Below are positions 35,783 to 62,853 of a DNA stretch of 64,000 nucleotides, in pieces. Every line of letters begins with the position of its first letter. Within the stretch, counting starts at the first letter, position 1. The DNA is taken from positions 35,920 through 99,919 of the forward strand of contig JAAXWX010000001.1 of NCBI GenBank assembly GCA_013334755.1, written 5' to 3'. The stretch is from Chlorobiaceae bacterium. GTDB taxonomy: Bacteria; Bacteroidota; Chlorobiia; Chlorobiales; Chlorobiaceae. The position numbers were made by a program, and so were the translations under genes. The notes under the pieces were generated by a model, which ran no database searches, was not told where the DNA came from, and was given only the letters and a program-made list of their open reading frames with translations.

Positions 35783-35945
35783 TTATTCGATACAGTCGCT
35801 GCGGATGTATTGGGGTTGTTAACCTTTGTTGGGGTAGATATCGAGCTTGTCGTCACCTGAGGGAACAAGGAGGTTTGTGGCTTCCGGCGTACCGGCTTCA
35901 AGCCACTTTTTCCAGTGGTTTGGGCTCAAGAATGACCGGCATCCG
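35783..35945 (-). pseudogene. SOS response-associated peptidase (SRAP/YedK) C-terminal remnant
   Basis: Frameshifted RMPVILEP / HWKKWLEAGTPEATNLLVPSGDDKLDIYP / KVNNP / YIRSDCIE* matches the SRAP C-terminus (RMPVIL..WL..L.P..YPV..VNNP..CIE). Confidence 0.7.
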
Positions 35946-57632: not shown

Positions 57633-59087
57633 TTATTCAGGAATTAACCACCAGAATGGATAGCCTTTAGCTTTGTGGAAGAAAAGATAGTGCAGGATCA
57701 CTTTCAGCCAATGGCCGGCAAGACCGGCTTCCCCTAAAGAATAGTGCATGTCGCGGCCCCATTCAGGATACTTTTCCCAGTCAGGAACAACCGGAAAGAG
57801 GGTCATAGATGCTCCCAGACCATCAAATGAACCGAATCCTGCTGATACAACACATGCTGCGCCCATTCTGCTCATTGAGGCTTTATGACGATGTTCCTGC
57901 GCTCCCTGGATTTTTTCTGCAATATTTAGCGCGACAATTTTCCCCATAACACCGGCAGGCATACCGGTTCGAGGCGCTGTGGGAAAAATCTGGCGACCAG
58001 TCGGACTCGACATGGGCTTTGAAATCGGATGCGGTGGGGCGAAGGCGATGCCTGGAGCATAGATGTTTTTGAACAGAGGATTCTGGTAAATCGACGGCCA
58101 GTCATCAGCTTTCCAATCTTCAAATGGTTTCGCGGTGTAGTCCGCATCAACCTTCATAAGCTTGTTCGGCGCAAACATCTTTTCCGTAATATCCGTCCCT
58201 GTCTTATCGTATGCAGTCAGACCAACTCCGGAAAAAGAAGGAATAAGCATGGCGAAATCAAATTCCTGTATTTTCTCTTCTCCTTCCAGCGTTTCGTAAT
58301 ACGCCTTGCCGGGCTCAACCTTATAGACTCCGGCTCTTCTTATCCAGTTGATTCCGTACTCGGCCATAAGAGATTCGGTGAAAACTTTCGTCGGAGTATA
58401 GTAACCTCCCCGGTTAATGAATGCTCCGGCCATGCCAAAATCACCCAGTTCATACTCATTCGACAGCCAGGTAATCTGTGCCATATGGCTGAGACCGAGT
58501 TTTGAAATTTCATAGGCAACATTGAGGATATATTCAAAAGCCGCACCCTGGCATGTTGCCATGGCATGACCGGTGCCAATCAAAAAGCGCTGTTTTTGAC
58601 CAGCCTGCATCTTTTTGATGTTTTCCTGAAGGTTCTCCCAGGCATGCGCTGCATGACCATAAGTACAGACCGAAAAGGTATTTTTATCGGGACCAAGACC
58701 TTCAGTCGCTTCGAAATTAAGCTTTGGACCTGTTGCGTTGACAAGATAATCATAGTCAACCTTCTCCGTCTGACCGTTCCTTACTCCATCGGTGTATTCA
58801 ATCGTCACATACCCTTTCGCAATTTCATGATCACCTTCAGGATGGATTTCAACCGCTTTGGCTTGTTTAAGGATTATACCCCAACGGGCATAGACTTTTT
58901 TCAATTCGAAGCGGACATCGTCGATGGACATCTGACCCACACCAACCCATATGTTTGATGGAATCCATTGATAGTAAGCGTTTGGGGTAACAACGACTAC
59001 CTCATGATGTTTGCCAAGCTTTTTTTTGAGAAATGAGGCGGCGGTATGGCCAGAAACACCAGCACCTAAAACAACGACCTTTGCCAT
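57633..59087 (-). CDS. sqr: Sulfide:quinone oxidoreductase (SqrD-type)
   Basis: VVLGAGVSG, WIPSNIWVGVG, SVC, GHAMATCQGAAFEY, APRTG, AACVVSAG; matches the Chlorobi SqrD pattern. Confidence 0.93.
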   Translation of the reverse strand: MAKVVVLGAGVSGHTAASFLKKKLGKHHEVVVVTPNAYYQWIPSNIWVGVGQMSIDDVRFELKKVYARWGIILKQAKAVEIHPEGDHEIAKGYVTIEYTDGVRNGQTEKVDYDYLVNATGPKLNFEATEGLGPDKNTFSVCTYGHAAHAWENLQENIKKMQAGQKQRFLIGTGHAMATCQGAAFEYILNVAYEISKLGLSHMAQITWLSNEYELGDFGMAGAFINRGGYYTPTKVFTESLMAEYGINWIRRAGVYKVEPGKAYYETLEGEEKIQEFDFAMLIPSFSGVGLTAYDKTGTDITEKMFAPNKLMKVDADYTAKPFEDWKADDWPSIYQNPLFKNIYAPGIAFAPPHPISKPMSSPTGRQIFPTAPRTGMPAGVMGKIVALNIAEKIQGAQEHRHKASMSRMGAACVVSAGFGSFDGLGASMTLFPVVPDWEKYPEWGRDMHYSLGEAGLAGHWLKVILHYLFFHKAKGYPFWWLIPE

Positions 59088-59797
59088 AAAATGTCAATTA
59101 TTTCAATGAAATCACACTGCTATATCTTTTATATAACTATATAGTTATTTAAAAGCAAACAAGGAAGAGTAACTTTTGTTTTTGCTTGAATGGCAGGGCA
59201 ATAAAATAAGATTTGAAGTGCTGCTTATTTGCAACCATGAACGGATCCCCTGTATTTAGCAATATTGCCGATCAAGACATTTACCATGCAAGATACAAAT
59301 TTATCTTCTCGATAAGCTGAAAAAGCCGCAGGAACCTCTGAAACAGCGAAGGCATTGCGGGAACTAAAATCAGCAGCCAGCCATTATTGCCTCAGTTTAT
59401 GTCTCAATAGCTCAGATTGGATTGAAACCACATTTATCAATAAGTAGTGATGCAACATTTGGAGTCATGGCTCAAAGCTGCTCCCTTTCACGCCAGGTTA
59501 AAGCAATGCAAGCTGCACGGGAACTGCTTTCTGTTTGTACCAGACAATGTTAACCCGCCATTCCCATAGTAAACCTCCGGTATATTGTTCTTCAACTATA
59601 GTGATAATATCTCTTTTCATCATTGATTACTCCTTTTATAGGCTCAATAGGGAAATATTTTTTTTGAATAAATGCCATATAACGGCATAATTTATCCTGA
59701 ACTGAAAGAACAGATTTGTTGCTATACATTCAGTACATTTGGTTTAGCTTTTTACCTTAGACTCTCCATAACGATCTATAAGAGAACAGGCTGAGCA

Positions 59798-61039
59798 ATG
59801 ACATTCGAACTGGATCCCGGACTGTTTGAAAACGTACAAGGCAAAGGAATAACCATCAAAATCGTCGGCATCGGCGGATGTGGCTGCAATGTCTTGAACA
59901 CAATGATTGAGAATGAAATCAACGGTGTTCAATATGTTGCATTCAACACAGCACCTCAAGAGCTTCTGGCTTCAAAGGCTCCAATCAGAGTGAGAATCGG
60001 TAAAAATGCGGCGAATGGTATCGAACCAACTGCCGTTTTTGCAAAAACTCCATTGAACAATCCTCTCTTTTCTGAAGAAGACCGCGAACATGTTGCTACG
60101 CAACTCCATGGGGCGGATATAGTCATTATTGCGGCAGGGATGGGAAAAAGCACAGGAAGCACGGCTGCCCCATTGATTGCCCTGATAGCAAGGAACATGG
60201 GTATCCTGACGCTCGGGCTGGTAACAAAACCGTTCACATGCGAAGGAAAAATGAAGGCAAAGACCGCAGAGGATGGAATTACAGAGCTGCGTAAATACAT
60301 CGACACACTTATCCTTGTTGATAATGAACAGATCATGAGTGGTGCCGAAGAGCACACAACTGTCAACGAAGCCTTCAATATGGCTAACGATGTCATATAC
60401 AGGGCGGCGAAAGGAATTGCAGATATACTTAACAGCCGTGGGCATATCAATGTCAACTTTGGCGACCTCTGCGGGCTGATGACGAATGCTGGTGAAGCGG
60501 TTATCGGCACAGCTGCAGCTTCAGGCGAAAGACGTGCCCTGAGGGCATCAACGGATGCATTCAACAATCTCCTTCTTGGAGGTGTATTGGTACAAGGCGC
60601 CAAAGGACTACTGGTCAACATTACAGGCGAAGTGACCATGAAAGATCTGGCGGAGGCAATGACCTACATTGAGGATCAGGTTGGCAATGAAACCACTATT
60701 ATCAACGGCTACATAGATGAAGCAACCATATCGGGCGAAACAAGGGTAACGGTTATTATCACCGGCTTCAAGAGAAAACCGACAGAGGACCTTGACCATA
60801 CCCGGTCAGAAAAACACAAGGAAACATGCAGCATCGGCAACGGAACACCTTCATTACCCAAAACTGATTATTCCATTCCAGCCTATATCCGAAGGCGGAC
60901 ATTGATCCATGATGGAGAACCTGAGGAGCAAAGCCCATTGTTCCCAGTCAAAAAAGAGTTGAGTGCCGATAGAATTCAAAAAGGCCTGCCAGATACTCCG
61001 GCATATCTTCGCAGGATAAAAAACGGAAACAATGATTGA
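59798..61039 (+). CDS. Divergent FtsZ paralog
   Basis: FtsZ fold motifs (KIVGIGG, AGMG, VTKPF..EG, IDTLI..DN, AFNMANDV, RVTVIITGF, IPAYIRR) with altered T3, T4 and T7 loops; no neighbouring ftsA. Confidence 0.9.
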   Translation: MTFELDPGLFENVQGKGITIKIVGIGGCGCNVLNTMIENEINGVQYVAFNTAPQELLASKAPIRVRIGKNAANGIEPTAVFAKTPLNNPLFSEEDREHVATQLHGADIVIIAAGMGKSTGSTAAPLIALIARNMGILTLGLVTKPFTCEGKMKAKTAEDGITELRKYIDTLILVDNEQIMSGAEEHTTVNEAFNMANDVIYRAAKGIADILNSRGHINVNFGDLCGLMTNAGEAVIGTAAASGERRALRASTDAFNNLLLGGVLVQGAKGLLVNITGEVTMKDLAEAMTYIEDQVGNETTIINGYIDEATISGETRVTVIITGFKRKPTEDLDHTRSEKHKETCSIGNGTPSLPKTDYSIPAYIRRRTLIHDGEPEEQSPLFPVKKELSADRIQKGLPDTPAYLRRIKNGNND

Positions 61040-61225
61040 TACCGAATTATTTTTTTTACAAGCCGGCACATAAATAATGCCAGCCATTTTCTGAAAAAAA
61101 AATAATAACGTGCTGGTTTTGGTTGAAAAAGAAGAATAAAGAACGTGAAATCAATATTAAAATGGTAATCTGTTGTACACCTTTCGAGAATTGTACATGC
61201 AGTTTTACTATGAGGGAAATCATCC

Positions 61226-61534
61226 ATGCTTGCCAGGAAAATGCCACCACTTCATCCAGGAACTGTTCTGCTTGAAGAGTACCTTACCCCCATGAATCTT
61301 AGCGAGAACAGAATTGCCGAAGATATGCAAATTCCGGTCTGGCGTATCAACGATATTATTGCGGGAAAACGATGCATCACAGCAGAGACTGCTTTGCGGC
61401 TTGCTCGCTATTTCAGCACCCCGCCACAATTCTGGTTTGGACTGCAAATGGACTACGATCTTAAAGTAGCCCTGAATAAGGAAGGTGCAAACATTGAACG
61501 GGAGATCAAGGCCTGCGATGATTCAAGACCATAA
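61226..61534 (+). CDS. HigA family antitoxin (XRE HTH)
   Basis: HPGTVLLEEYL, RINDIIAGKRCITAETALRLARYFST.PQFW.GLQ..YDL. Confidence 0.92.
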   Translation: MLARKMPPLHPGTVLLEEYLTPMNLSENRIAEDMQIPVWRINDIIAGKRCITAETALRLARYFSTPPQFWFGLQMDYDLKVALNKEGANIEREIKACDDSRP

Positions 61535-61542
61535 TCGTTCTG

Positions 61543-62853
61543 CTACTCTTCATTGTTGACTATATCGTTTTCTGCTTCAGCTGCCATGTCCGGCGGTATC
61601 TGACGGCTCACTTTTGCCCCAAGCCTGCGGATCTCCTCGACCCTGCCAACAAGATTGCCCCGTCCCTCTTTCAGGCGTTTCAGAACCACGTCAAACGATT
61701 CCGATACTCCTGAAAGTTTTTTACGTGCTTCGATTATTGCCTCAAAAACAAGAAAGGCTTGATCATAGATCTTTCCGGCCTTTTCAGCGATAAGCTCGGC
61801 ATTACTGTTCTCATTCTCACGCCGCCAGATCTGCGAAATCAGCTTGAGGGTGATCATGAGCGTCGTCGGACCGCACAAAACAACGTTTTTACCTGCAAGA
61901 TCATAGATCAGATCGGGATCGTTTTGCATAACTGCATGCCATGCCGGTTCGAGCGGAATGCACATGATGACAAAATCAAGCGTCCGGTTGCCACCGATAC
62001 CACTGTAATCTTTTGTCTGCAAATCGGCAACATGACGACGCACTGACTGTATATGCTCCCTGAGGACCGACTGGCGTTTCGTATCCTGCTCAACGCTGCA
62101 GAAACGTTCATAGGCCGTCAGCGAAACCTTGGAATCAACAATCACAGCTTTGTTCCCCGGCAACATCACCATAAAATCCGGGCGTTTAAGCAACCCGTCC
62201 TCTCCCCTGAAGCTCTCCTGGGCCAAGTATTCCCGGCCTTTTTCAAGACCCGAAGCTTCAAATATTCGCTCAATAATCATCTCGCCCCAGTCACCCTGTT
62301 TTTTCGAGTCGCCCTTAATAGCGCGAGCCAGCAGGTTTGCCTCATCGCTCACTCTGCTGCTCATCTCCTGAAGCTGTCGAACCTGCTCGACAAGTCGTGC
62401 AGACTGTTCCGTATCCTTGTTATGAACCTCGTCAACCCTCTTTCGAAACGAGTCAAGCTGTTCACGCAAAGGCTGAAGTATACCTTCCATTCGTTCACGG
62501 TTTTCCATTCCAAGCGCTCTGCTTCGATCCTCAAAGATTCTGTTGGAAAGGTTTTCAAACTCAATTTTCAATCGTAATTCCGACTCTTGCATAAGGAGCA
62601 TTTTTTCGGCGGCGTTGCGCCTTTCGTTCTCGATATCAGATTCAAGACGTGCATGAGTGATTTTCAGAGTTTCAAGCTCGATGCTTTTCGCTTCGAGCCG
62701 GAGATCGTTGGCACGGGCATCTTTTTCAACACCCCGGAGGCGAAGCAATTCCGTTTTCAGGGGAGCATCACGTATCAGACGGTAGACCACAAAAACCAGA
62801 AGAATAAGAAGAAGCAGAAGGATAGAGAGAGTGATAGTATAGGTCATGAGCAT
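61543..62853 (-). CDS. rmuC: DNA recombination protein RmuC
   Basis: N-terminal TM plus coiled coil, GDWGEMII, RPDFMV.LP, IVDSKVSL, DFVIMCIP, PTTLM. Confidence 0.95.
   Translation of the reverse strand: MLMTYTITLSILLLLLILLVFVVYRLIRDAPLKTELLRLRGVEKDARANDLRLEAKSIELETLKITHARLESDIENERRNAAEKMLLMQESELRLKIEFENLSNRIFEDRSRALGMENRERMEGILQPLREQLDSFRKRVDEVHNKDTEQSARLVEQVRQLQEMSSRVSDEANLLARAIKGDSKKQGDWGEMIIERIFEASGLEKGREYLAQESFRGEDGLLKRPDFMVMLPGNKAVIVDSKVSLTAYERFCSVEQDTKRQSVLREHIQSVRRHVADLQTKDYSGIGGNRTLDFVIMCIPLEPAWHAVMQNDPDLIYDLAGKNVVLCGPTTLMITLKLISQIWRRENENSNAELIAEKAGKIYDQAFLVFEAIIEARKKLSGVSESFDVVLKRLKEGRGNLVGRVEEIRRLGAKVSRQIPPDMAAEAENDIVNNEE

Follow-up and report, generated by a model that had tools for sequence, protein, structure and literature searches.

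Why does a green sulfur bacterium keep, outside its division gene cluster, a second FtsZ with altered guanosine triphosphatase (GTPase) motifs? The question was raised by a 64,000-nucleotide stretch of a Chlorobiaceae genome (assembly GCA_013334755.1, contig JAAXWX010000001.1, forward-strand positions 35,920–99,919), hereafter the window, whose numbering is used throughout. A gene within it encodes an FtsZ homologue that we call type A. We propose that type A may be a lineage-specific, catalytically degenerate paralogue ('pseudo-FtsZ') descended from the canonical Chlorobium ftsZ: a non-hydrolysing subunit that would go to the membrane tethers of FtsZ and there cap, poison, sequester or stabilise FtsZ filaments. 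We judge the case for this regulator to be evenly balanced. The loss of GTPase activity, the interaction with FtsZ or FtsA and the direction of the effect are all things we infer from sequence.

59798–61039, plus strand: type A FtsZ paralogue, 413 aa, with an FtsZ GTPase-fold domain, an FtsZ_C domain, a disordered linker and two C-terminal peptides

The open reading frame ran through 413 codons without interruption, as a preliminary description of the window had stated. The only significant Pfam matches of the protein were Tubulin (PF00091, 107 bits) and FtsZ_C (PF12327, 60 bits). Its whole globular part aligned with solved FtsZ structures (B. subtilis FtsZ, 2VAM, E=6e-64), and it has both the tubulin/FtsZ GTPase fold and the FtsZ C-terminal domain. 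An AlphaFold (AF2) model built with 88 sequences had predicted local distance difference test (pLDDT) values of 87–95 in the N-domain and 55–78 in the C-domain. Its target-normalised template modelling scores against FtsZ crystal structures were 0.78–0.89 among the 50 Foldseek matches listed. On TIGR00065, the NCBIfam FtsZ equivalog model, the protein scored 269.1 bits, below the curated equivalog cut-off of 295.2 bits.

The assembly (2.11 Mb in 103 contigs, 97% complete) contained exactly two genes of the tubulin family. The other one, on contig C80, encodes a canonical FtsZ (P0002) of 430 aa with all canonical motifs and 373.3 bits on TIGR00065. It lies directly downstream of ftsA (TIGR01174, 369 bits), with an FtsW-type SEDS gene about 5 kb away. 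The window gene is thus not the only ftsZ of its genome, and its earlier designation as a second copy was borne out. The place in the division and cell wall (dcw) cluster next to ftsA is held by the canonical copy; around 59798–61039 no division genes were found, the neighbours being sqr, an HTH_3 gene (higA in the earlier reading) and rmuC, as described. The two FtsZs share 55% identity, the N-terminus M[AT]FELDPGLF and the tail peptides IPAYIRR and DTPAYLRR.

Close orthologues (73–78% identity) were present in 13 of the 78 species of the window's genus and absent from the other two genera of the family in a scan of 123 species genomes. A collection of 5.8 billion proteins held approximately 17 type A clusters at 90% identity, the named ones auto-annotated as 'cell division protein FtsZ'. 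All named type A records came from metagenome-assembled genomes of uncultured Chlorobiaceae, and the stated sites were lakes (ELA Lake 227, Lac Pavin); the window's own sequence was also found in biofilm, soil, wetland and freshwater-sediment metagenomes. Extra copies of two further types were detected: A2 in two species (G020, G107), and B in six (G019, G020, G024, G027, G107, G119) as well as in three species of another genus. Maximum-likelihood analysis of 52 FtsZs placed A, A2 and B together in one clade (100/99), on long branches within the canonical FtsZ of the genus. This topology indicates one duplication inside the Chlorobiaceae followed by acceleration and further splits, although the exact nesting is open to long-branch effects.

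The motifs in which type A departs from canonical FtsZ are as follows.

59867–59893, plus strand: T1 loop GIGGCGCNV, with Cys in place of the Gly before Asn in every type A, A2 and B sequence examined
59945–59953, plus strand: T2 motif NTA (residues 50–52), the Asp that coordinates Mg-bound water (S. aureus D46) being lost
60017–60070, plus strand: replaced T3 loop GIEPTAVFAKTPLNNPLF (residues 74–91), 4 residues longer than GLGAGADPAKGRQA, with PLNNPLF conserved in type A
60137–60163, plus strand: T4 tubulin-signature region GMGKSTGST, the lineage norm being GMGKGTGTG
60449–60466, plus strand: T7 loop NVNFGD (lineage NVDFAD), with Asn for the catalytic first Asp and Gly for the next-but-one Ala

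The four motifs quoted in the preliminary description (NTA, GIEPTAVFAKTPLNNPLF, GKSTGST and NVNFGD) were all where it had placed them. Its phrase 'systematically altered' is overstated, since the protein keeps the base and ribose contacts, most of T4 and the second Asp of T7. T1 reads GGCGCN against GGCGGN in the lineage. T2 reads NTA against NTD, and the last position is K, E, D, A or T across type A. The gamma-phosphate-sensing G-x-G-A-G of T3 is gone and GIEPTAVFAKTPLNNPLF stands in its place; this new segment had pLDDT <55 in both AF2 models, which therefore make no statement on whether it fills the nucleotide pocket. An origin of the new T3 by frameshift was rejected, as the canonical T3 region translated in the other two frames gave nothing like GIEPTAVFAKTPLNNPLF.

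T4 had been read as a change from GGGTGTG to GKSTGST; the Lys, however, is typical of the lineage, and only S118, S121 and T122 deviate. The last Gly of the signature is M, T, N or I across type A, a change shared by the whole family that leaves no intact signature. In T7, likewise described as altered, the first Asp (E. coli D209, S. aureus D210) is indeed lost, being Asn in 9/9 type A and 2/2 A2 sequences tabulated, but the second (D212) is retained, so that N-x-D-x-x-D no longer carries both acids. The window protein keeps the guanine and ribose contacts E138, N165, F182, N186 and D187 (E. coli numbering), and type A retains the equivalents of N208, D213 and Q48 of S. aureus FtsZ (SaFtsZ). 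Changes fixed in type A lie on the top face (T2-H2, T3, F137C in T5, and A178V/T179N in H6-H7) and on the bottom face (T7, R-G-H-I-N-V-N-F-G-D-L-C-G). Because the same substitutions recur in 13 species and approximately 17 protein clusters, they are far beyond chance.

The likely effect of these changes can be read from SaFtsZ filaments, in which D210 in T7 of the upper subunit swings to position the catalytic water, this water is held by D213 and by G72 in T3 of the lower subunit, and D46 in T2 organises the Mg-water shell (PMC8936486). Each of the mutations D46A, N208L, D210N and D213N suppressed assembly, and D210N also disordered the T3 loop of the partner (PMC8936486). The Asp-to-Asn change fixed in T7 of type A is the equivalent of D210N, a mutation that abolishes catalysis as well as assembly. 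GTP-driven homopolymerisation and hydrolysis of the canonical kind seem unlikely for type A because this equivalent is fixed, the D46 equivalent varies and T3 is replaced. Type A might instead be a genuine second FtsZ, a GTPase that still works despite its unusual loops, much as chloroplasts and archaea have FtsZ1/FtsZ2 pairs; its full length, the strong selection on it and the retention of N207, D212, most of T4 and the residues that contact guanine and ribose would fit this. We regard this as improbable, given the missing catalytic Asp, the replaced T3, a T2 Asp position that varies freely (K, E, D, A, T), a bulky residue for the last signature Gly and a score below the TIGR00065 equivalog cut-off.

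Type A retains both C-terminal peptides.

60866–60898, plus strand: internal conserved peptide DYSIPAYIRRR, which aligns with the E. coli FtsZ tail peptide DYLDIPAFLRKQ and occurs in 13/13 type A
60968–61015, plus strand: terminal conserved peptide DRIQKGLPDTPAYLRR, common to canonical Chlorobium FtsZ and present in 12/13 type A

The C-terminal peptide of E. coli FtsZ is the docking site for FtsA and other partners. In type A both DYSIPAYIRR and DTPAYLRR are present and constrained, and binding to such tethers is predicted. Type A could accordingly be pictured as a monomeric decoy that competes through these peptides for FtsA or other peptide-binding partners, given that both are conserved and that changes of the D210N and D46A kind abolish SaFtsZ assembly (PMC8936486). 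A decoy would not need strong constraint on its globular domain, yet the ratio of non-synonymous to synonymous substitution rates (dN/dS) was 0.031 in H7 and T7 and 0.13 in the new T3, and the orthologue of G097, which is without the terminal peptide, keeps the remainder of the protein; there is little likelihood that the tail is all that matters. That orthologue (L076) stops after 391 aa at a TGA just ahead of the terminal peptide, and is a natural tail-truncated variant or an assembly error. Separately, some metagenomic Chlorobiaceae encode a 385-aa FtsZ with canonical GTPase motifs but without the terminal PAYLRR (P0104, P0101, P0110, P0117); this variant keeps only the internal IPAY[LI]RR and was found on approximately 100 contigs.

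Is the gene kept by selection? Pairwise dN/dS (NG86), computed for the type A and canonical genes of the same five genomes, was 0.115–0.178 among type A orthologues and 0.035–0.067 among canonical genes. H7 with T7 was the most constrained part, at the value given above, followed by the N-domain (0.08–0.12), the internal tail peptide (0.10), the new T3 segment, the C-domain (0.15), the terminal tail peptide (0.24) and the linkers (0.28–0.36); the globular regions of canonical FtsZ had values of 0–0.012. Type A is thus clearly under purifying selection, its novel parts included. In four metagenomes with the window gene, a coexisting second allele showed 21 synonymous and 9 non-synonymous codon differences. 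The type A orthologue of ELA088 (G002) was tiled by RNA contigs with 0–3 mismatches in three freshwater metatranscriptome runs from one sample. Word depth in these runs was approximately 2–7 for type A and 5–26 for the canonical ftsZ of G002, that is, roughly a quarter to a half, contig depth being a crude measure.

A decaying or neutral duplicate would suit the patchy distribution, the absence from the closest relatives and a non-synonymous rate 10–15 times that of canonical FtsZ. It is contradicted by a frame intact in 13 species at dN/dS 0.12–0.18, the skew of polymorphism to synonymous sites, a conserved upstream element and the transcribed orthologue, and we consider it very improbable. 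The earlier proposal that the frame is held by selection, rather than being a strain-specific, neutral and unexpressed copy, agrees with these data.

A coexisting allele was also observed in three metagenomes at 60004–60469 (residues ~69–224, from T3 to T7). It differed at 25/274 and 16/219 nt, the differences were confined to that stretch, and the flanking contigs were nearly identical. This allele looks like a recombinant mosaic and resembles a 90%-identical JGI protein (P0003).

How, then, might type A act? Because fold, flexible linker and both tether peptides are retained, it would be expected to be delivered to the same FtsA-type tethers as FtsZ. There it might dock on canonical FtsZ, with its highly constrained H7/T7 face set against the GTP face of the latter; hydrolysis would not be triggered, because the T7 of type A lacks the swinging catalytic Asp. 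Nor could it recruit the next subunit in a GTP-dependent way, because its own nucleotide face (T1, T2, T3, T4) is rebuilt. At sub-stoichiometric levels type A would then cap or poison canonical FtsZ filaments or heterodimers and alter Z-ring turnover; it would be an accessory brake or tuner of division rather than the division motor. The location of type B beside an extra FtsW/RodA gene supports this by tying the paralogue clade to the envelope and division machinery.

Several observations weigh against such a regulator. Both polymerisation faces were remodelled and then conserved, a pattern that suits a new self-interface no less than a hetero-interface with FtsZ. Docking onto FtsZ itself may be weak, because D210N in SaFtsZ abolished assembly and gave no capper. 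No convergent adaptive substitution was found in the canonical FtsZ of the carriers; their two conservative clade-specific changes (E89D, E240D), neither of which is in G000, are uninformative. Type A may still bind nucleotide, and may even have some activity, because the guanine and ribose contacts are intact. Transcription was seen for the ELA orthologue only, and by contig depth only, and no RNA run with the window's own gene or the L227 orthologue was found. Type A had no conserved operon partner, its neighbours varying between sqr, an Rrf2-hcp block, LptF/G in G002 and others in G028.

A rival reading is an independent, non-dynamic scaffold. Type A would then self-assemble, by way of top and bottom faces that were remodelled together, into stable filaments without nucleotide hydrolysis, anchored by FtsA and serving a role away from the Z-ring, for example in cell shape or in positioning envelope synthesis. 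The elements of both faces all changed and were then fixed within type A, the sister type B is linked to a SEDS polymerase of its own, and canonical FtsZ shows no co-adaptation. There are, on the other side, no dedicated partner genes near type A, the gene is easily lost and gained, and its tail peptides, which barely differ from those of canonical FtsZ, predict shared rather than separate tethers. We consider a scaffold possible, though rather unlikely.

The history of the locus bears on whether type A, regulator or not, is dispensable. The gene lies in a chromosomal slot with the conserved order DUF218, SQR, slot, HTH_3, RmuC.

57633–59087, minus strand: SQR-like flavoprotein gene, left border of the slot, its sequence tracking the species tree
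59153–61136, plus strand: segment without counterpart in the closest non-carrier relative (G015), which has 674 bp of degraded hcp/TPR fragments between SQR and HTH at this slot
59720–59747, plus strand: conserved upstream block TGCTATACATTCAGTACATTTGGTTTAG, candidate promoter, 50 nt before the ATG and containing TAnnTTTG
61226–61534, plus strand: orphan HTH_3 (XRE/HigA-like) gene, right border of the slot, present whether or not a genome carries type A
61543–62853, minus strand: rmuC, convergent with the FtsZ paralogue as in G118

A canonical-ftsZ DNA tree covering 44 of the 78 species served as a proxy for the species tree. In it, 12 of the 13 carriers formed one exclusive clade (SH-aLRT 99), and the type A tree mirrored that clade, which implies that type A was inherited vertically among them. 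The window's genome sits outside, in a nine-species clade with P. phaeoclathratiforme BU-1 whose other eight members are without type A. Its type A gene was nonetheless nested inside the type A clade of the carriers (93/96); an approximately unbiased (AU) test rejected an outside placement marginally (p=0.042). Synonymous divergence between the window's and other type A genes was 0.86–1.12, lower than the 1.54–1.69 of canonical pairs, values of about 1 or above being near saturation. The window's SQR, with 93–94% identity to relatives against 89–90% to carriers, followed the species tree.

The content of the slot varied. It held ftsZ-A together with an Rrf2-4Fe4S-TPR-hcp block in G019 and G006, ftsZ-A beside HTH_3 and rmuC in G118, as in the window, and the hcp block alone in the non-carrier G024. 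The simplest reading, which leans on the marginal AU test, is that the window's lineage may have acquired type A by homologous recombination at this shared slot; ancestral presence followed by repeated loss is possible. Under either history type A is an accessory, dispensable gene, because it is present or absent at one conserved slot. A mobile element or defence island was rejected as its setting: the slot is a conserved chromosomal one, the flanks track the species tree, and the HTH_3 gene also occurs in non-carriers.

No remnant of type A was detected in the slot of G015 (tblastn, E>0.8). At that slot (L092 4054–5876, G015:C20) the adjacent rmuC is a pseudogene with several stops, and this, together with the degraded hcp/TPR fragments, indicates local gene decay. 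In G002/ELA088 (L035 6883–9489, G002:C2), a gene for an LptF/LptG-family permease follows type A after 19 nt on the same strand; the two may form a local operon, an arrangement not seen in the other carriers.

The 24–28-nt upstream block with TAnnTTTG was kept in most type A orthologues across at least 4 different upstream contexts; because it travels with the gene through differing surroundings, it is a candidate promoter, TAnnTTTG being what we take to be a Bacteroidota-type −7 element. In scans for sigma-70 promoters and terminators, matches were no more frequent than in shuffled sequence. The HTH_3 gene had no HigB-like partner, and the 187-nt gap 5' of it held no open reading frame. As its position is conserved in carriers and non-carriers, it is an orphan XRE-type regulator and not part of a toxin–antitoxin pair.

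A tentative link to the branching or net-forming morphology of Pelodictyon had been suggested and was not supported. The net-forming P. phaeoclathratiforme BU-1 (G036) has a single FtsZ, as has C. phaeobacteroides DSM 266, the type A carriers are all uncultured, and the second FtsZ of C. (Pelodictyon) luteolum DSM 273 is of a different type with intact GTPase motifs. This type, found in DSM 273, a cultured strain (G090, L090, ABB23758.1; TIGR00065 347 bits), also occurs in a relative (L038, G029:C4). FtsZ has therefore been duplicated more than once in Chlorobium.

Further observations concerned the sister types. The A2 proteins (L043, G020:C10; L088, G107:C24) are 395–407 aa long, have T7 NVNFAD and a differently replaced T3, and are sister to A and B; in G020, a DUF1003 gene and a gene for an NAD-dependent epimerase-like protein lie close on either side of the A2 gene, on its strand. 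Type B is without even the base-binding residues (N165S, D187E). At its loci (L089 3072–11969, G107:C4, minus strand; L040, G020:C33; L039, G019:C11) it shares its orientation with the other genes of a cluster, which comprises a third SEDS (FtsW/RodA) gene, a metallophosphoesterase, a PdaC/DUF3298 membrane protein, DUF2085, a protein of ~600 aa that matched VWA weakly and several proteins without matches. The genomes without type B that were checked had only two SEDS genes. The type B cluster may be an undescribed accessory envelope or division module, and its extra FtsW/RodA gene suggests a wider, undescribed set of FtsZ-derived accessory modules in green sulfur bacteria.

How does type A compare with known systems? 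Full-text literature searches turned up no account of an FtsZ paralogue in Chlorobium or of a tail-bearing degenerate bacterial FtsZ. With canonical FtsZ (TIGR00065; P0002) type A shares the two-domain fold, 55% identity, the N-terminus, the linker with its two-peptide tail and the guanine and ribose contacts. It differs in T1 (Gly to Cys), T2 (Asp lost), T3 (replaced, with 4 more residues), the last signature Gly (lost) and T7 (Asp to Asn), in lying outside the dcw cluster, in its sub-equivalog score, in being accessory, and in a globular domain that evolves 10–15 times faster. E. coli FtsZ D209 and D212 mutants offer an engineered T7 comparison. The SaFtsZ mutants D210N and D46A carry the same T7 Asp-to-Asn change and T2 Asp loss as type A (PMC8936486). 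Such mutants are inactivating point changes made in the laboratory, whereas those of type A were fixed by selection in a separate gene beside a wild-type FtsZ, with a rebuilt T3. Type A is, in other words, a full-length, tail-bearing copy kept by selection with changes that inactivate FtsZ in the laboratory.

Duplications of FtsZ are rare in bacteria, and the described cases are mostly truncated with the GTPase domain kept (bioRxiv 10.1101/2025.09.29.679267). FtsZ1 and FtsZ3 of A. tumefaciens (Hyphomicrobiales) are lineage-restricted, non-essential duplicates thought to tune division, and over-expression of FtsZ1 inhibits division (bioRxiv 10.1101/2025.09.29.679267). By description these are truncated 'FtsZ GTPase' duplicates; type A is the reverse, with linker and full tail retained and the GTPase loops degenerate. 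The FtsZ1/FtsZ2 pairs of chloroplasts (PMC3494859) and archaea (bioRxiv 10.1101/2020.06.04.133736) resemble type A and FtsZ in being two paralogues in one compartment. Those pairs divide labour, both members taking part in ring assembly or constriction, and are ancient and widespread, whereas type A is a recent, degenerate copy limited to some species of one genus. Nmar_1262 of Nitrosopumilus, a thaumarchaeal homologue of FtsZ that lacks the conserved GTP-binding motif and does not polymerise (PMC3684127), is a precedent for a retained degenerate FtsZ, although it is archaeal, the sole FtsZ homologue of its genome, of unrelated origin and without the bacterial FtsA-binding tail. The FtsZl-1 and Tubulin_2 families (Makarova and Koonin 2010, PMC2875224) are defined by a divergent Tubulin_2-type domain; type A instead hits PF00091 and PF12327 and nests in Chlorobium FtsZ.

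Should type A act on the Z-ring, the cell would carry its own genetically encoded poison or stabiliser of FtsZ, made from FtsZ, and type A would show, as an experiment of nature, how the protein of a cytomotive filament becomes a regulator. That step is thought to underlie the non-catalytic subunits of tubulins. In beta-tubulin of the alpha/beta dimer, and in BtubA/B, T7 lacks the catalytic acid and the nucleotide at the covered interface stays unhydrolysed. Type A is like beta-tubulin in having a T7 without this acid (Asn at the D209 equivalent), a comparison of how the two might work. More speculatively, type A and FtsZ might form a defined heterodimer or co-polymer in which the Asn-bearing T7 covers the GTP of FtsZ unhydrolysed, a recent bacterial analogue of the non-exchangeable site of alpha/beta-tubulin and a regulated brake on Z-ring treadmilling. 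We think this unlikely; if true, the clade of A, A2 and B would represent a small radiation of regulators of the 'pseudo-FtsZ' kind, in which type B was recruited to a SEDS cell-wall synthase of its own. The non-catalytic partner in tubulin keeps a fully functional nucleotide site of its own, whereas in type A the nucleotide face is itself rebuilt.

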